This document shows positions 5,104 to 28,596 of a stretch of DNA of 32,000 nucleotides, piece by piece (position 1 is the stretch's first letter; each line of letters begins with the position of its first letter). The stretch covers positions 2,469,098 to 2,501,097 of the forward strand of contig NC_012803.1 of assembly GCF_000023205.1 (NCBI RefSeq). The letters run 5' to 3'. Origin of the DNA: Micrococcus luteus NCTC 2665 (GTDB taxonomy: Bacteria; Actinomycetota; Actinomycetes; Actinomycetales; Micrococcaceae). Position numbers and translations under genes: made by a program. The notes beneath the pieces are model-generated. The model made no database searches and was not told where the DNA came from. It saw nothing but the letters and a program-made list of their open reading frames with translations.

Positions 5104-5979
5104 GTGCGAGTCTACTACTTCGACGACTCCGGCGACCGCAGTGGGGATCCCACGAAGCCCTACTTCGCGCTCGGAGGGTTCGGCATCGAGGCTGCCCGGG
5201 TCCCGGAGCTGGGCAGCAAGATCCGCGCCGTGGCGGAGCGTTACGGCATGCCGCTGGGGCATCCCGTCGAGTTGAAGTTCAATCAGGTCGGGCGAAGCAA
5301 GGACAACAAGCCGCGCAAGCCGCATTGGATGATCCGCGCTGGGCTGACGGACCCGAATGAACGTCGCGCGTTCGTGTACTCGGCACTGCGTGAGGCAGCT
5401 CAAGTGCCCTCCGTCGAATTCCTGTGCGTTGTCGTAGACCAGAGGCAATTGCGCGAGGAGGCTCACCCACTCAAGGAGGCCCTCACCCCCCTCCTCGAGC
5501 GCATTCAAATGAACGCAAAGAAGCACGCGACGCATGCGTTGGTCCTCATGGACGAGGAACAGGCCGATGACAAGGCATTACGGGAGGTGATGCGGAATGG
5601 GTCCGAGTTCCTGAAATATGACCGGATCCTGGACACCATCGCCTTCATCCCATCCGAAGAGAGCATCGGAATTCAGGTCGCTGACTTGGCGGCGGGCGCG
5701 ATCTCCCGCTACTTCAACTCAAACGACCCCGGGTATGTCCGGACGTTCCTGCGCAGCACGGCCTGCTCTCCGTCCGGAGATCCCAATGGATATGGGGTCA
5801 AGGTTTATCCCTTCGGGCGTTTCGCCGGGCCCGCCCGGCGATCTGCCCCTTGGGGCAGCGTTGACCGCGAGATCCATCAGATCGAGTTTGCTCGGTATCC
5901 CGGAGCGACATTGGGGTGGCGAAATGACGGCGCGCCAACGTTCGTCTGGCGACACGACTGGGACAGCGGTCTCGACTGA
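5104..5979 (+). CDS. DUF3800 domain-containing protein
   Basis: GTG start at 5104 preceded by GAGGAGG (5092-5098). N-terminal VYYFDDSGD and C-terminal IGIQVADLAAGAI match the two signature motifs I remember for DUF3800 (D-x-S-G and Q-x-A-D). G+C is visibly lower (about 58% in line 5401-5460) than in neighbouring genes. Confidence 0.7.
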   Translation: MRVYYFDDSGDRSGDPTKPYFALGGFGIEAARVPELGSKIRAVAERYGMPLGHPVELKFNQVGRSKDNKPRKPHWMIRAGLTDPNERRAFVYSALREAAQVPSVEFLCVVVDQRQLREEAHPLKEALTPLLERIQMNAKKHATHALVLMDEEQADDKALREVMRNGSEFLKYDRILDTIAFIPSEESIGIQVADLAAGAISRYFNSNDPGYVRTFLRSTACSPSGDPNGYGVKVYPFGRFAGPARRSAPWGSVDREIHQIEFARYPGATLGWRNDGAPTFVWRHDWDSGLD

Positions 5980-6104
5980 ATCTGCGTGAAAAAGAAACCG
6001 GGGGCTCCCTATTGAGAGCCACGGGGCGTTGAGAACCCCTCCCGGTCGTCAGTTCAGTGTATAGGACACCGAACAGTTGGCACCACCCTATCGCGCCCTA
6101 CACA

Positions 6105-6148
6105 CGATGATGCCCCGCCGTTCGAGTGGAACGGGCGGGGCATCATCG
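6105..6148. terminator. bidirectional intrinsic-terminator-like hairpin between the DUF3800 gene (+) and rplI (-)
   Basis: Perfect 15-bp stem: CGATGATGCCCCGCC (6105-6119) pairs with GGCGGGGCATCATCG (6134-6148), 14-nt loop. It lies 40 nt downstream of the rplI stop. Confidence 0.6.
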
Positions 6149-6187
6149 GGCGGATGACGCGTACTCGACGCGTTCAGAAGCGGATGA

Positions 6188-6649
6188 TCACTTCTTGGCC
6201 TTGGCGGCCACGACCTGCAGCTGGACGGTCGCGATGACGTCCTCGTGCAGGCGGACCTGGGCCTCGTGGTTGCCCACGGACTTGATGTGGGCCGGCAGGG
6301 TGATCGAGCGCTTGTCCACGGAGCCGAGGCCGGCGGCCTCGATCGCCTCGGCGACGTCGGCGGTCTGGACGGCGCCGAACAGGCGGCCCTCCGCACCGGC
6401 GGTGCGCTCGAGCTGCACGGGAGCGGACTGGAGCTGCGCGGCCTGGGCCTGCGCGTCCTCCAGGTTCGCCACGGCGCGGGCCGCGCGGGCCTTCTGCAGG
6501 GACTCGACCTGCTTCTCCCCGCCCTTGGTCCACACGGTGGCGAAACCGCGCGGGAGCAGGTAGTTGCGGGCGTACCCGTTCTTGACCTCGACCACGTCAC
6601 CGGAGGTGCCGAGACCGGCCACTTCCTGGGTCAGGATGAGCTTTGCCAT
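6188..6649 (-). CDS. rplI: 50S ribosomal protein L9
   Basis: [37 protein letters not shown]... is a canonical L9 N-terminal domain. Last gene of the rpsF operon. Confidence 0.97.
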
Positions 6650-23756: not shown

Positions 23757-25130
23757 TCAGGACTTCTTGCCCTTCCCCTTGCCGTCCTGACCGCCCTGGA
23801 TGAGGTCCATGATGCGGTTCAGGTCCTCTACGGTGGTGAAGTCGATGGCGATGCGGCCCTTGCGCGCGCCGAGGGTGATCTTCACGGCGGTGTCCAGGCG
23901 GCTGGTGAGCGCGGTGGCGTAGTGGTCCAGGCGCTCGTGGCGGGCGTCGTCCGTGCTGCGCCGCGGCGTGCGGCCCGGCCGGAGCCCGCCCTGCAGCTGC
24001 GCGACCGCCTCCTCCGTGGACCGGACGGACAAGCCCTCCGACTGGATCCGCTGCGCCAGACGCTCCATGTCCGACGGGTCCGTGAGACCGAGCAGCGCAC
24101 GCGCATGGCCGGCCGAGAGCGTGCCGGCGGCCACGCGGCGCTGCACGAGGGGCGGCAGCTTGAGCAGCCGCAGCGTGTTGGAGATCTGCGGACGAGAGCG
24201 GCCGATGCGCTGGGACAGCTCCTCCTGCGTGCAGGCGAAGTCCTCCATGAGCTGCTGGTAGGCGGCGGCCTCTTCGAGCGGGTTCAGCTGGGAGCGGTGC
24301 AGGTTCTCCAGCAGAGCATCCCGCAGGAGGTCCTGGTCCGGGGTCTGGCGGACGATCGCCGGGATGGTGTCCAGGCCGGCCTTCTGGGTGGCGCGCCACC
24401 GGCGCTCGCCCATGATCAGCTCATAGGGGGTGGGGCCGTCCACCTCGCGCACGACGATCGGCTGCAGGATGCCGACCTCGCGGATCGAGGTGACCAGTTC
24501 CGCCATGTGGTCCTCGTCGAACACCTCACGCGGCTGCCGCGGGTTGGGGTGGATGTCCCCCACCGGGATCTCCCGCAGGACCGCGATGTCCGCGGACACG
24601 GTCCCCTCGGTCGCGGCGGACTCAACGCTCGAGTCCCCCGGTTCGTTCCTCGACGACGTCGCGGAGGTGGCACGCTTGCTGGGCGCCTTCACCGTCGGCA
24701 TGGCCGGACGCCCCTTGGTCGGCCGCGCCGCGGGTGCATCCTCGGAGTCTGCGGAGAAGAACACGTCGACGGGACGCTGCGCGGGTCGCGAGGCACGCTT
24801 CGACGAGGTGGGCCCTGCCTTCGTGGCGGACGTGGCGTTCCTGCCAGTCGCAGCCGTTGATTTCCCGGCCTGTGTCGTTCGGCCCGCGGTCTTCCGCTGC
24901 GAGGCCGACGGGGCGGGCTCGTTGGACTCCCCTGGCGTCTCGGTCGTCGCGGTGCTCCGCGTCGATGTCGTGGTGGCCTCCGCTGCCGCGGCAGCCTTCG
25001 GGCCGCTCTTCACCGGCACCGCAGAGTCCTTCGGGGAGGTGGCCTCGGCGTTCTCTTCCGGGGCTTCTACAGTGCTCTGGATCAGGGCGCCGAGGCCTCG
25101 CCCCAGGCCTCCTCGACGGCTCGTCTTCAA
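23757..25130 (-). CDS. parB: chromosome partitioning protein ParB (CTP-dependent parS-binding clamp) with a long low-complexity insertion
   Basis: TTG start at 25130 with AGGAGG 5 nt upstream. The N-terminal RRGGLGRGLGALI peptide is followed by about 165 aa rich in S/T/A/P/K. Then come PNPRQPREVFDEDHMAELVTSIREVGILQPIVV, the GERRWRA box, an HTH (TQEELSQRIGRSRPQISNTLRLLKLP), and a C-terminal dimerisation domain with a Lys-rich tail (GKGKGKKS). Confidence 0.93.
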   Translation of the reverse strand: MKTSRRGGLGRGLGALIQSTVEAPEENAEATSPKDSAVPVKSGPKAAAAAEATTTSTRSTATTETPGESNEPAPSASQRKTAGRTTQAGKSTAATGRNATSATKAGPTSSKRASRPAQRPVDVFFSADSEDAPAARPTKGRPAMPTVKAPSKRATSATSSRNEPGDSSVESAATEGTVSADIAVLREIPVGDIHPNPRQPREVFDEDHMAELVTSIREVGILQPIVVREVDGPTPYELIMGERRWRATQKAGLDTIPAIVRQTPDQDLLRDALLENLHRSQLNPLEEAAAYQQLMEDFACTQEELSQRIGRSRPQISNTLRLLKLPPLVQRRVAAGTLSAGHARALLGLTDPSDMERLAQRIQSEGLSVRSTEEAVAQLQGGLRPGRTPRRSTDDARHERLDHYATALTSRLDTAVKITLGARKGRIAIDFTTVEDLNRIMDLIQGGQDGKGKGKKS

Positions 25131-25372
25131 CGGGTCCTCCTGCAGTGAGTGGGTCTGGGATCAGTGTAGGTGAGCGGCCTGGTCTCGATGGTCCCGGGCG
25201 GCGGGAAGACACTTCTCAAGGTGCTCTGGCCCTGACCGCCGGGGGGCGCGCGAGGGCCTGACACGTGCAAGGGGCGCGGCGAGGTTCGGGCCCCGGTTCT
25301 GGGGTGAGACGTCCGTATTGGGCCCGGACGGCAGGAGGTGGGCGCGCGGACAGCACCTGCCGCGAGCGTGAG

Positions 25373-25388
25373 TGTTTCACGTGGAACA
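25373..25388. promoter_or_regulatory. parS site 1 (TGTTTCACGTGGAACA, 1 mismatch in the 14-bp core)
   Basis: Match to the chromosomal parS consensus tGTTTCACGTGAAACa. Confidence 0.7.
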
Positions 25389-25463
25389 CTCCGAGTGGGG
25401 GCGCTTCGGAAGGATGCCGCTGCAATCCCCAAGACCTCCTCGTGTTCCCTCTCGAGGTTCACT

Positions 25464-25479
25464 CGTTTCACATGAAACG
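25464..25479. promoter_or_regulatory. parS site 2 (CGTTTCACATGAAACG, 1 mismatch in the core)
   Basis: Match to the parS consensus. The central CG is replaced by CA. Confidence 0.65.
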
Positions 25480-25777
25480 CGAGCCCGCGTCGACGAGCGG
25501 ACGGTATCAGAATCACGGCTGCTCGGTTTGTTTTCCATGTGCTCCCCGGCCGATCAGCTCCCGTGCGGACGATACTCAGATTGCTGGTTACCCGCATGAT
25601 GATGTGCCTCATCTTGTGTGAAATGCCGGACCAGCAACGAAGCACTCGTCTCACTCCCCCGCGGTGCGAGGTGAACACTCGAATCAGCGAACGGATGAGC
25701 TCGGCTACTCGTCGCTTCGCCGTCAGTGCTTCCTCGCACCCGCGCAGCTGACGAATTGAACGCTGCTTGGCCATCCG

Positions 25778-25793
25778 CGTTTCACGTGAAACA
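25778..25793. promoter_or_regulatory. parS site 3 (CGTTTCACGTGAAACA, perfect 14-bp core)
   Basis: Perfect GTTTCACGTGAAAC palindrome. Confidence 0.88.
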
Positions 25794-25971
25794 CGGACGA
25801 ATCTGTCATCCAAGTACGACATGAGTTCGTGGTGGGCCACGTGCTCGCTCACCCGCGAGTCAGTGCCACCTTCCTGCTTCATTCTCGGTCAGCTCGCTCC
25901 CGGCACGGAACGTGTGCTCCCTGGATCGCCCGAGGTGGCGACCTCGCGGCACGGCCCTTTGTCCCGGAGCT

Positions 25972-25987
25972 CGTTTCACGTGAAACG
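25972..25987. promoter_or_regulatory. parS site 4 (CGTTTCACGTGAAACG, perfect 16-bp palindrome)
   Basis: Perfect GTTTCACGTGAAAC palindrome. Confidence 0.88.
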
Positions 25988-26155
25988 TATCGTTCGAAGA
26001 TTCCACCGCGCGCTCATGCCGTGGAAGCCCGCCCCCAAGCGGGTCGCATCCCGAGGCTGGCGTGCGCAGGGGCCACTATATCTTGAGAGGTTCAGTCTCG
26101 CCGCGTCGCTGATAAAACTGGCTCGGATCCAGTGAGCGCCGACCACCAGTCGTTC

Positions 26156-26171
26156 GGTTTCACGTGAAACG
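26156..26171. promoter_or_regulatory. parS site 5 (GGTTTCACGTGAAACG, perfect 14-bp core)
   Basis: Perfect GTTTCACGTGAAAC palindrome. Confidence 0.88.
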
Positions 26172-26367
26172 TGCTGGGAGGGAACGCCGGGTCGCGGGTT
26201 CGGTGCCGGGGCAGCGTGCACCCACTTCCGCCATCGACGGTATTGCTCGATGTGGTCGCCGATGTCACGGGCGGCAGTACAGTGACGCGGCTGGCCCTCC
26301 ACCCGACCTACCGAATCCATTCGTCCTGTCAGCTGAGGCCGCCCATCAAAGTCTCAGGACCGCCTCG

Positions 26368-26376
26368 TGTGGAAAC
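26368..26376 (-). promoter_or_regulatory. weak DnaA-box-like 9-mer (GTTTCCACA on the minus strand)
   Basis: TGTGGAAAC on the plus strand. Two mismatches to the actinobacterial TTGTCCACA and one mismatch to the relaxed TTWTNCACA. Confidence 0.25.
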
Positions 26377-26446
26377 TGGGTCTTCATGACGTCCATCCGC
26401 GGACAGCTGCGGTCAGGAACCGACGCTAGGGGAGCGCGGACCACCG

Positions 26447-26462
26447 TGTTTCACGTGAAACC
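26447..26462. promoter_or_regulatory. parS site 6 (TGTTTCACGTGAAACC, perfect 14-bp core)
   Basis: Perfect GTTTCACGTGAAAC palindrome. Confidence 0.88.
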
Positions 26463-26691
26463 CCCGGTGACCGGCCGATTACTCGACGCCCTGGTTCCCA
26501 CGTCGCTGCAAGCGACAGAACCACACGGCCCGCCCCATCCCGCACGGAGCCGCCGCGGGCTCCCCGGGGGGCCTCTACCGCAGTCACCATTGACACGCCG
26601 TCCCCGTGCCCAGCCGTCAGACGCCACAGGAGACTGAGCAGGACTCATCAACACCGCAGAGACATCTACCGCCGCACACCTTAGACGTCCC

Positions 26692-26713
26692 TTGTCCACA
26701 GATGTTGTCCACA
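26692..26713 (+). promoter_or_regulatory. two perfect tandem DnaA boxes (TTGTCCACA at 26692-26700 and 26705-26713, same orientation)
   Basis: cccTTGTCCACAgatgTTGTCCACAtatcaacatcaacg. Both 9-mers equal the actinobacterial DnaA-box consensus. They are followed by the most AT-rich patch of the region; line 26701-26760 is about 52% G+C by hand count. Confidence 0.75.
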
Positions 26714-27468
26714 TATCAACATCAACGTTCGCTGGTGACCACGTCAAGACGCCTGTTGGCCAGTTCAACCACTTGCCTCTGTATACATTGGGGGCACACG
26801 ACCGCTCTTCCTCACTGGAGGCTCTCTTTCTCCGCACACAGGAATGCACAGCAGAACTGTCCTTCAGGCGCCGCCAATCGGCCCCTCCAACTCAGACGAA
26901 TCACAGCAGACCCCCTCGCCGCTGACGTCCCCTCTCGCACACGCTGACTGACAGACCGGCCGCGCACCCCCGCGACGGCACTCTGACTCGTGCTCCGCTC
27001 TGGCCCCCGATTCCCTGCACGTCACCGACGGCGAGGAGGTCTGACATGGGGGAGGGGGCACCCAGCCACGGCACCCGGCCTGCTCGACGGCTGCATTCTC
27101 GGGGCTGCCACGAGCCCGCCTGGGGCGGCAGGGACGGGCCATGCCCTGCACGTCCGCAGCCGCCGGTTAGGACGTTCCCTACGAACCGCGCAGCTCCCGA
27201 GGCGCACCTCAACGCACGGTGCACCGCCGGCCGGCCATCACAGCCGCGGTCCCGCCCCAGGGCGAAACCGTCCTCCCCGTGACTTCGTGCGTCGCCGCCC
27301 CCGGCTGCCCCCACGCCTGGCGACAGATGCGCCCCGCCCACAACGGAGCGGCAGAGGGCTCGGCCCAGGGGAGGAGAGGGGAGCGGGACAGACGGGAGCG
27401 GTCCACTACGGGCACCCCTCCCCATCGTCCCATCGCGGCGGCACGACGCTCGCACCCTCGGAGGGGGT

Positions 27469-27484
27469 CGTTTCACGTGAAACA
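27469..27484. promoter_or_regulatory. parS site 7 (CGTTTCACGTGAAACA, perfect 14-bp core)
   Basis: Perfect GTTTCACGTGAAAC palindrome, 165 bp downstream of the parA stop. Confidence 0.88.
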
Positions 27485-27552
27485 CGGTCGTCCGCTATGC
27501 CCAGCGATTCCGCTTGTCTTCCTGCCGCTTATCTCCCGGGCCGCACTCACTC

Positions 27553-27599
27553 ACGACGAAGCCCGCCGGGGGATCGCTCCCTCCGGCGGGCTTCGTCGT
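27553..27599 (-). terminator. terminator-like hairpin downstream of parA
   Basis: 17-bp stem: ACGACGAAGCCCGCCGG (27553-27569) pairs with CCGGCGGGCTTCGTCGT (27583-27599). It lies 50 nt after the parA stop (27649). No U-tract, as is common in high-GC actinobacteria. Confidence 0.6.
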
Positions 27600-27648
27600 C
27601 GTCAGCAGCGCCACCCGGCGACCACCGCAGCAGCGGGTCGCCTGCGCG

Positions 27649-28596
27649 TCAGCCCTTCAGGGCCGTCGGCGCACCGCGGCCGGCGATCTCCGCGGCCGCC
27701 TCCCGGTACGCCACGGCGCCGGCCGAGGCCGGGTCGTAGGTCAGCACCGTCTGCTGATAGCTGGGGGCCTCGGAGATGCGGACGTTGCGGGGGATCGCGG
27801 TGTTCAGCAGCTGCTCCGGGAAGTGCGTCCGGACCTCCTCCGCCACCTGCACGGCGAGGTTGGTCCGCGCGTCGAACATCGTCAGCAGGATGGTGCTCAC
27901 CTTGAGGCGCGGGTTCAGGTGTTTCTGGATCATCTGCACGTTCTTGAGCAGCTGCGAGAGGCCCTCGAGGGCGTAGTACTCGGCCTGGATCGGGATGAGC
28001 ACCTCCTCAGCCGCCACGAACGCGTTGACCGTCAGCAGGCCCAGGGACGGCGGGCAGTCGATGAACACGTAGTCCAGCCGCTCCTGCCCGACCTCCTCGC
28101 GCCAGGCGGTGTACGCCTCGAGCGCCCGCGACAGTCGCTGTTCGCGGGCCACCAGCGAGACCAGCTCGATCTCGGCACCGGCCAGGTCGATCGTCGCGGG
28201 CACCACCTGCAGGCCGTCCACGTCCGGGGCGTCCTGCACGACGTCCTGGATCTCCATCTCGCCCAGGAGCACGTCGTACACGGAGGCCACGTCTCCGGTG
28301 TGGGGGATGTTCAACGCGGTGGATGCATTGCCCTGCGGGTCGATGTCCACCACCATCACCCGCATGCCCGCGCGGGCGAGGGCCGCGGCCAGGTTGACCG
28401 TCGTCGTCGTCTTGCCGACGCCGCCCTTCTGGTTGGACGTCGTGAATACGCGGGTGCGGTCGGGGCGCGTCAGACGGCGACGCTGGAGCCGCGCGGGCTC
28501 CTCGGCGTCGGCGCCGCCCTTCTCGGCGGTCCGGCCGGTCCACTTCTGGCGCAGGGCCCTCCAGGCCCCACCCCGGCTCTCCTGCTCCTGCGCCAT
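27649..28596 (-). CDS. parA: chromosome partitioning ATPase ParA/Soj
   Basis: Deviant Walker A SNQKGGVGKTTTTVNLA, plus VMVVDIDPQGNAS and YVFIDCPPSLGLLT. ATG at 28596 with AGGAGG upstream. About 50-aa basic N-terminal extension, typical of actinobacterial ParA. Confidence 0.95.
   Translation of the reverse strand: MAQEQESRGGAWRALRQKWTGRTAEKGGADAEEPARLQRRRLTRPDRTRVFTTSNQKGGVGKTTTTVNLAAALARAGMRVMVVDIDPQGNASTALNIPHTGDVASVYDVLLGEMEIQDVVQDAPDVDGLQVVPATIDLAGAEIELVSLVAREQRLSRALEAYTAWREEVGQERLDYVFIDCPPSLGLLTVNAFVAAEEVLIPIQAEYYALEGLSQLLKNVQMIQKHLNPRLKVSTILLTMFDARTNLAVQVAEEVRTHFPEQLLNTAIPRNVRISEAPSYQQTVLTYDPASAGAVAYREAAAEIAGRGAPTALKG

Follow-up and report, generated by a model that had tools for sequence, protein, structure and literature searches.

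The spacer between parA and parB of Micrococcus luteus NCTC 2665 contains a 30-bp element which, judged by its sequence and its conservation, is a real DnaA-box cluster located outside the replication origin. The spacer lies within the 32,000-nucleotide stretch of DNA analysed here (NC_012803.1, positions 2,469,098 to 2,501,097; hereafter the window), and the element (26692-26721 in window coordinates) consists of three boxes that are all direct repeats: two exact and one degenerate. Its components are as follows.

26692..26700, plus strand: DnaA box 1, TTGTCCACA, exact consensus
26701..26704, plus strand: 4-bp gap, gatg, between boxes 1 and 2, giving a start-to-start pitch of 13 bp
26705..26713, plus strand: DnaA box 2, TTGTCCACA, exact consensus, the anchor box
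26713..26721, plus strand: degenerate DnaA box 3, ATATCAACA, overlapping box 2 by one base, pitch 8 bp

An earlier note on this DNA had drawn attention to the two exact tandem boxes, 13 bp apart, and had argued that their proximity was not fortuitous. Both points are borne out. The window holds exactly two copies of TTGTCCACA, both on the plus strand, while 100 dinucleotide-preserving shuffles of the same 32 kb gave a mean of 0.10 exact matches per window and in no case (0/100) two copies. The third box, which differs from TTATCCACA at two positions and from TTGTCCACA at three, begins at the last base of box 2 and continues into a sequence that the note had singled out as the most AT-rich of the region. 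This description holds, since the 16 bases 3′ of box 2, TATCAACATCAACGTT (26714-26729; 69% A+T), tie as the most AT-rich 16-mer of the spacer and positions 26700-26729 (63% A+T) have the highest A+T content of any 30-mer in the window; the patch is nevertheless short and its enrichment in A+T modest. Its first 8 bases, which had been overlooked, are the best-conserved part of the element. The 'weaker box' listed at 26368-26376 on the minus strand (GTTTCCACA) does exist, but with two mismatches it is at chance level: 50 such 9-mers occur in the window, approximately 1.6 per kb, and it is not conserved in relatives.

The identity of the 9-mers as DnaA boxes is corroborated by the true origin of the organism. 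As the earlier note anticipated, the canonical oriC lies outside the window, beyond rpmH-dnaA, where we located it in the M. luteus locus L001, whose spacer is identical to that of the window. The spacer of chromosome LS483396.1, one of the M. luteus assemblies that encode the ParA of the window without a difference, likewise agrees with it base for base. Allowing one mismatch to TTGTCCACA, L001 has ten boxes in its dnaA-dnaN intergenic region and four in the rpmH-dnaA promoter region; the total of exact and one-mismatch boxes for oriC and the dnaA promoter was put at 15. Along its 21 kb, L001 has five perfect copies of TTGTCCACA: oriC accounts for two, the dnaA promoter for one and the element, about 7 kb from the canonical dnaA-dnaN oriC, for the other two. 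The boxes of the element match the organism's own oriC consensus. This 9-mer also serves M. tuberculosis and S. coelicolor as their high-affinity DnaA box (PMC4285127 Table 1). A basal unwinding module, TTCTCCACA-GGATCCACA followed by DnaA-trios, has been predicted for M. luteus NCTC 2665 in the dnaA-dnaN region (PMC8287927 supplement), and we recovered the TTCTCCACA-GGATCCACA sequence there in L001.

We examined conservation of the element in 80 Micrococcaceae loci around parA, supplemented with Micrococcus and Citricoccus loci obtained via ParB homologues. Nine Micrococcus lineages have a complete spacer (L001, L084, L085, L004, L005, L006, L086, L010 and L087), and all nine carry the box-N4-box arrangement with its 8-bp extension. 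In each case the module sits between parS sites one and two and has the same orientation, the boxes pointing to the 3′ end of parA. A check on relatives had been proposed in the earlier note, and its outcome is a non-coding site retained in 9/9 lineages within a spacer that is otherwise unalignable. When the M. luteus spacer was compared with the 80 loci by blastn, only parS and the box pair matched outside the species, and even the nearest other lineage has a spacer that is only about 67% identical, although its ParB is 91% identical, a sign of rapid evolution of the spacer. An unbiased k-mer test (k = 8-12, words common to at least 7-8 of the nine spacers) returned parS-derived words, TGTGGACA, and TGTTGATATGTG with its sub-words, and nothing else.

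The consensus of the element is TtaTCCACAGnngTTGTCCACATATCAACAg, with no conservation on either side. Of the two strong boxes, box 1 is the less conserved, occurring as TTGTCCACA, TAGTCCACA, TTATCCACT, TCATCCACA, TTATCCCCC or CCATCCCCA with a conserved core of TCC.C., while box 2 has at most one mismatch in every lineage. The gap between them is 4 bp throughout; its first base is always G and the others vary. The extension reads TATCAACA in seven of the nine lineages; the exceptions are M. lylae, with TGTGCACA, and one lineage with TATTCACA. Additional boxes (two to four within 200 bp) are present at non-homologous positions in M. antarcticus, M. lylae and one more lineage, and a fragmentary metagenome-assembled genome (L008) has a small box cluster in another arrangement.

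This 8-bp extension is, from its sequence, best read as the major part of a third, degenerate DnaA box that overlaps box 2. Positions T2, T4, A7, C8 and A9 of this box are invariant in the genus, and its M. lylae version, ATGTGCACA, has two mismatches. With the 41-bp element as query, a phage collection yielded a single match, marginal in score (E = 0.6) but of the same architecture. In Arthrobacter phage BruhMoment, the sequence TAATCCACA-actg-TTATCCACA-TATCAACA-agg (L091 1501-1530; OM818331.1 57652-57681) occupies a 66-bp intergenic gap and is followed on its 3′ side by a hairpin, a ribosome-binding site and gene 89. The related phage SilentRX carries TTATCCCCA-gcag-TTATCCACA-TATCAACA, while AWGoat carries TTATCCACA-cca-CCATCCACA-TATCCACA, with a true box, ATATCCACA, at the position of the extension. 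In these phages (L091, L094 and L095) the module is located between a stop codon and a G-rich hairpin with a ribosome-binding site, and the gene that follows encodes a conserved protein of 170 amino acids (phrog_26090). Pfam and PHROGs scans of the genes beside the phage module gave matches of unknown function only, and phages that contain a gene 89 homologue but are more distant in sequence lack the module.

We searched IMG/VR with a set of patterns that were alike, also in their number of specified bases, except for the third-box pitch. The counts of stretches below include several mutual duplicates and some stretches that may come from bacterial origin DNA in contigs classed as viral.

Third-box pitch 8 bp: 34 stretches, plus 6 with a GTCC first box
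Third-box pitch 9 bp: 37 stretches
Third-box pitch 10 bp: 6 stretches
Third-box pitch 11 bp: 67 stretches
Third-box pitch 12 bp: at least 120 stretches

The preference among these sequences (L099-L324) is thus for 12 bp, then 11 bp, then 9 and 8 bp, all of them well above 10 bp. Contigs with the one-base-overlap form, TTATCCACATATCCACA, span 29-71% G+C, and the form is often part of a larger box array; from the pitch-8 counts it is therefore a recurrent arrangement of DnaA boxes. A pitch of 8 bp does not, to our knowledge, figure in textbook accounts of DnaA arrays. The sub-optimal TATCAACA, rather than TATCCACA, is kept by seven Micrococcus lineages and two phages, which suggests selection for a weak site beside a strong anchor. 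At E. coli oriC, weak sites are filled only by ATP-DnaA (reviewed in PMC6399470), and by analogy we infer that box 3 may follow the same logic. The recurrence of the layout in phages further suggests that the three-box module could be a reusable 'DnaA sensor'.

The element is embedded in the centromere region of the chromosome. The spacer contains seven parS sites (GTTTCACGTGAAAC, at most one mismatch), where none would be expected by chance, and the module lies inside this array, between the sites at 26448 and 27470. On the minus strand the gene order is rpmH-rnpA-yidD-yidC-jag-rsmG-parA, the 2.5-kb spacer and parB, with trxA and trxB next on the other strand. The landmarks around the element are listed below.

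25131..27648: parA-parB spacer (centromere island), 2.5 kb, which hosts the element
26448..26461: parS, GTTTCACGTGAAAC, on the parB side of the element, 231 bp from it
27470..27483: parS on the parA side of the element
25374, 25465, 25779, 25973 and 26157 (range 25374..26170): five other parS sites
27649..28596, minus strand: parA, 315 amino acids
23757..25130, minus strand: parB, 457 amino acids, TTG start
27553..27599, minus strand: hairpin directly downstream of parA, 20-nt arms, 95% complementary

The distance from the parB start (25130) to the boxes is 1562 bp, in agreement with the figure of about 1.5 kb given in the earlier note. The G+C content of the spacer is below that of its surroundings. 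No open reading frame (ORF) is conserved between species in the spacer, as judged by tblastx among the spacers, in which only the 5′ end of parB is common, and an Rfam scan of the whole window identified no family. The N-terminus of ParB contains a RRGGLGRGLGALI motif resembling ParA-interaction motifs, followed by a low-complexity linker of about 170 amino acids that precedes the ParB_N domain; in some annotations the ParB start is placed 143 amino acids later, giving a protein of 314 amino acids. The hairpin downstream of parA (116-nt fold, -82.6 kcal/mol, z = -6.1) has no U-tract; it probably terminates transcription in the hairpin-only manner of Actinobacteria. Since so stable a structure follows parA, parA and parB are probably separate transcription units.

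Several further features of this neighbourhood were recorded. A 33-nt inverted repeat (26429-26461 versus 27470-27502; 88% complementary) extends 18 nt beyond the parS palindrome and brackets a 1008-bp segment that holds the DnaA module. Several parS copies have common extended flanks (CGTTTCACGTGAAACACGG[A/T]CG), which suggests local duplication of parS. A 251-amino-acid ORF (25127-25882, minus strand) is called as a gene in GCA_900475555.1; its product is rich in Arg and Pro and has no Pfam match, and it overlaps three parS sites and the parB start; this call is very likely spurious. Two smaller candidate ORFs, one of 78 amino acids at 27046-27282 with a good ribosome-binding site and one of 35 amino acids read by eye from the ATG at 26843, were rejected, as both products are of low complexity and neither is conserved. 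Elsewhere in the window, a 291-amino-acid ORF (5104-5979, plus strand) lies in a tract of about 60% G+C compared with about 72% around it, is followed by a hairpin at approximately 6100-6150 and was possibly acquired horizontally. The one-mismatch DnaA boxes at 6312 and 6526 fall inside the neighbouring rplI-like gene and are attributed to chance.

At the level of the family, perfect boxes in 81 Micrococcaceae loci occur at densities of 0.27 per kb in oriC/dnaA, 0.21 per kb in the parA-parB gap and 0.03 per kb elsewhere. Nearly all of the boxes counted as 'elsewhere' are located at about 5.7-6.5 kb of the locus, which corresponds to the rpmH-dnaA promoter, and once these are reassigned, four or five remain in approximately 1.3 Mb. 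A long, parS-rich parA-parB spacer, with 2-4 kb of non-coding DNA and 4-9 parS sites, is found in Micrococcus, Citricoccus, Zhihengliuella, Rothia koreensis, one Rothia sp. and Arthrobacter sp. UM1 (the window and L004-L006, L010, L021, L033, L038, L077, L082 and L084-L090), while parA and parB are adjacent in most Arthrobacter, Glutamicibacter and most other Micrococcaceae. Boxes are also found in other arrangements. Three Tersicoccus species have an inverted (palindromic) box pair, TTGTCCACAccTGTGGACAA, in the part of parB that encodes the linker, 34 bp upstream of an intragenic parS (L045 11870-11889, L025 11794-11813 and L072 11905-11924), and in some Arthrobacter, Sinomonas and Zafaria box clusters occur downstream of parB, about 4 kb downstream of parA. 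In Arthrobacter sp. RCC_34 (L026 14170-14990) an 820-bp ORF-free tract contains nine box-like 9-mers around one parS; similar box pairs were also seen at the same place in L018, L020, L073, L074 and L037. All 19 events of strong box pairs outside oriC/dnaA (19/19) are closer to parS than most random positions in the same region (fractions 0.04-0.39), and a rough combination over about five independent lineages gives a p-value of the order of 0.004. The association between boxes and parS across the family, as read from these loci, is suggestive but not established. Separately, Citricoccus sp. SGAir0253 (L089 1642-1683) has three boxes in the layout of the dnaA promoter (TGTGGATAActcTGGGGACAAcccgggtcgtccTGTGGACGA) in or beside jag (R3H), away from dnaA.

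Extra-origin DnaA-box clusters, and DnaA at a centromere, are already known as kinds of system, and the closest parallels come from B. subtilis and Caulobacter crescentus. The oriC-proximal DnaA-box clusters of B. subtilis restrain initiation, depend on lying near oriC, and have a synthetic-sick interaction with spo0J that requires soj (PMC3245932). These clusters, six loci including thdF-jag and yydA-yycS (PMC3245932, PMC2533591), resemble the Micrococcus element in having consensus boxes outside oriC but proximal to the origin, in the same gene neighbourhood (rpmH...jag...gidB-parA-parB), as non-coding DnaA sites, and they act genetically with Spo0J/Soj. They differ in containing more boxes, mostly in the promoters of regulated genes, whereas the Micrococcus element has three boxes at 13+8 bp within a parS array between parA and parB and has no recognisable promoter or downstream gene. 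In Caulobacter crescentus, as summarised in a review, DnaA is found at the parS centromere (Mera, Kalogeraki and Shapiro 2014 via PMC6399470). The likeness to Micrococcus lies in boxes placed in the centromere a few kb from the origin, where a single initiator domain would read both places; the two differ in phylum and box consensus, in the 140-428 bp between the Micrococcus boxes and the nearest parS, and in that, by the same summary, DnaA binding and its requirement for centromere movement were demonstrated by experiment in Caulobacter, whereas binding in Micrococcus is predicted from sequence.

Other systems share part of this design. The datA and DARS1/2 loci of E. coli are, like the element, small non-coding box clusters that alter DnaA activity and are not origins, but datA and DARS2 need IHF or Fis sites and the element has no evident IHF-type site. 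The DARS core, reportedly set out by Fujimitsu et al. in 2009, is said to contain three boxes of which one is opposed in orientation, whereas all three boxes of the element are direct. In S. coelicolor a cluster of TTGTCCACA-type boxes outside oriC, 'D78', was reportedly found by Smulczyk-Krawczyszyn et al. in 2006 to restrain initiation; it is said to lie at another locus, to be larger than the element and not to have been described as centromeric. The basal unwinding system (PMC6669920, PMC8287927) resembles the element in its tandem boxes of the same orientation and in a conserved stretch 3′ of the proximal box, but the element lacks DnaA-trios, a GC spacer and a conserved AT-rich tract, and its inter-box gap is 4 bp compared with at most 3 bp in the training set for that system. 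In chromosome II of Vibrio cholerae, rctA/parS2 (PMC6399470) is a centromere site that binds the initiator of the replicon and modulates initiation by keeping it close to the origin; this initiator is RctB and not DnaA, the system is plasmid-like, and the resemblance is functional only.

From the exact boxes and their conservation, we consider that DnaA very probably occupies the element in vivo. Boxes 1 and 2 would be the high-affinity anchors, and the weak box 3 would be filled by cooperative, probably ATP-DnaA-dependent, extension of an oligomer, by analogy with weak boxes elsewhere. This short oligomer, positioned in the zone of ParB-parS and ParA 7 kb from oriC, would modulate the timing or frequency of initiation and link it to ParABS; the element would neither open DNA nor serve as a classical promoter operator. 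That a short DnaA oligomer on the element tunes initiation at oriC and ties the state of DnaA to the partition complex is, in our estimation from the sequence comparisons, an evenly balanced proposition. Among the roles put forward in the earlier note, those of a datA- or B. subtilis-type cluster and of a platform joining DnaA to ParA/ParB both appear better grounded after these comparisons. Several observations weigh against such a role. With only three boxes, the M. luteus element has a small capacity for DnaA titration. Two DnaA domains 8 bp apart may clash, in which case boxes 2 and 3 could be alternative sites. The phage copies are in an operator-like position, 10-45 nt upstream of a ribosome-binding site. 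No box pair was found in three long, parS-rich Citricoccus spacers, hence a centromere island does not need the module, and the distance from the module to the nearest parS ranges from 140 to 428 bp among the Micrococcus lineages, which argues against a fixed DnaA-ParB geometry. Finally, the spacer is the sole large non-coding tract in its neighbourhood, and the association of boxes with parS is confounded because both kinds of site favour scarce non-coding DNA.

The position of the phage copies raises the alternative that DnaA controls transcription from the element, with the boxes as the operator of a promoter that has escaped annotation. Such a promoter would either drive an antisense or non-coding RNA directed at the 3′ end of parA or serve parB from a distance. 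The module precedes a ribosome-binding site by 10-45 nt in three Arthrobacter phages and several high-GC viral contigs, often followed by a 5′ hairpin; the DnaA-box clusters of B. subtilis are mostly promoter-associated (PMC3245932); and the plus strand contains a weak sigma-70-like sequence, TTGTCC-N16-TATCAA, with 8/12 matches. However, TATCAA does not end in the T that is nearly invariant in actinobacterial -10 elements, box 1 conserves the DnaA core (TCC.C.) and not the TTG of a -35 element, and a search of both strands up to 120 nt on either side found no TANNNT whose offset is constant in as many as four of the nine lineages. A scan of 25000-27800 for sigma-70-type consensus promoters found no sites, and the two terminator-like sites in this interval are weak and at chance level. 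Downstream, tblastx between spacers and Rfam gave no conserved ORF or RNA, and the parB start is 1.5-3 kb away. We regard an operator as unlikely, though conceivable in principle given that the phage copies lie directly upstream of a gene. A centromeric site of the Caulobacter type, at which DnaA would act on segregation and not on initiation, by licensing ParA movement or as a roadblock to ParB-CTP sliding, would agree with the module always being found within the parS array, between its first two sites, and with the boxes that lie 0-54 bp from parS in Tersicoccus, Zafaria, Zhihengliuella, Rothia koreensis and some Arthrobacter. In Caulobacter, according to the review, DnaA binds parS and is needed for centromere translocation (PMC6399470). 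The variable parS distance in Micrococcus, the Citricoccus islands that lack the module and the confounding by non-coding space all count against this alternative, as does the lack of any actinobacterial precedent in our literature search, and it seems to us decidedly unlikely.

Recognition by a different protein, alone or together with DnaA, was considered in view of the direct repeats, the conservation of the extension to the same degree as the boxes, and the TGT...ACA symmetry of box 2 plus extension, which has a CRP-like 16-bp geometry (TGTCC-N6-CAACA). An MtrA-like regulator of the OmpR type or a CRP/FNR-like dimer could be envisaged, but the 9-mers match the DnaA consensus exactly and not the MtrA motif GTCACAGCG (PMC4285127), the 13-bp pitch is atypical of OmpR-family repeats and both half-sites lack the second G of TGTGA. 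Moreover, where the extension varies, as in AWGoat (TATCCACA) and M. lylae (TGTGCACA), it shifts toward a DnaA box and toward no other known motif. Both the CRP/FNR-like palindrome and the MtrA-like direct repeat were consequently rejected on sequence grounds, and a site for another protein is improbable. The suggestion in the earlier note of an auxiliary or relic origin, or an unwinding module, fares worse. Tandem boxes of the same orientation followed by an AT-rich 30-mer superficially resemble the basal unwinding system (PMC8287927), but the published rule looks for a run of three or more NAN trios that lies 0-16 nt from the box and opposite in strand to the TTATCCACA reading (PMC8287927, strand convention verified against its supplementary table). 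Such trios are present in only one of the nine lineages, not M. luteus, compared with 11% of random spacer positions, whereas the true oriC has them. Only 8 bases after box 2 are conserved, and these read as a box, while the AT-rich remainder differs in every lineage; the element has three boxes as against at least 10 in the true oriC; and the published prediction for NCTC 2665 places the unwinding module in dnaA-dnaN. A relic duplication of oriC was rejected, as the spacer and the oriC region show no similarity, and a plasmid or mobile origin was likewise rejected after no match was obtained among 72,556 plasmids (PLSDB). An origin function is thus highly improbable. As for chance or a functionless neutral leftover, nothing but the small size of the element favours it; the expectation of 0.1 exact boxes as against two adjacent copies and the 9/9 conservation amid unalignable flanks oppose it, and the conservation data effectively refute it.

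Returning to a DnaA oligomer acting from the centromere island, the sequence comparisons would also accommodate a bolder proposal, which we put forward as doubtful. The initiator may be built into the centromere of Micrococcus, and in other layouts into those of Tersicoccus, Zafaria and some Arthrobacter, such that an ATP-DnaA oligomer would gate ParB spreading or ParA-driven segregation, or would report the status of partition to oriC, with the portable three-box module having been taken up by phages.

In our literature search, no paper was found that describes DnaA boxes at any actinobacterial centromere or, specifically, between parA and parB in Micrococcus. The features worth the attention of specialists are the fixed 13+8-bp layout of three boxes with its conserved weak overlapping box and the occurrence of the same module in Arthrobacter phages. 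The coupling of replication to segregation has been worked out in few models, namely Soj-DnaA in B. subtilis, DnaA-parS in Caulobacter and RctB-parS2 in Vibrio, and the element provides a defined, mutable target of 30 bp for this coupling in a simple coccoid actinobacterium. If the element merely titrates DnaA, it would be one more locus of the datA or DnaA-box-cluster type, mainly of value for annotation. If it is instead a component of the centromere, the link between DnaA and the centromere in Caulobacter would be extended to the Actinobacteria.

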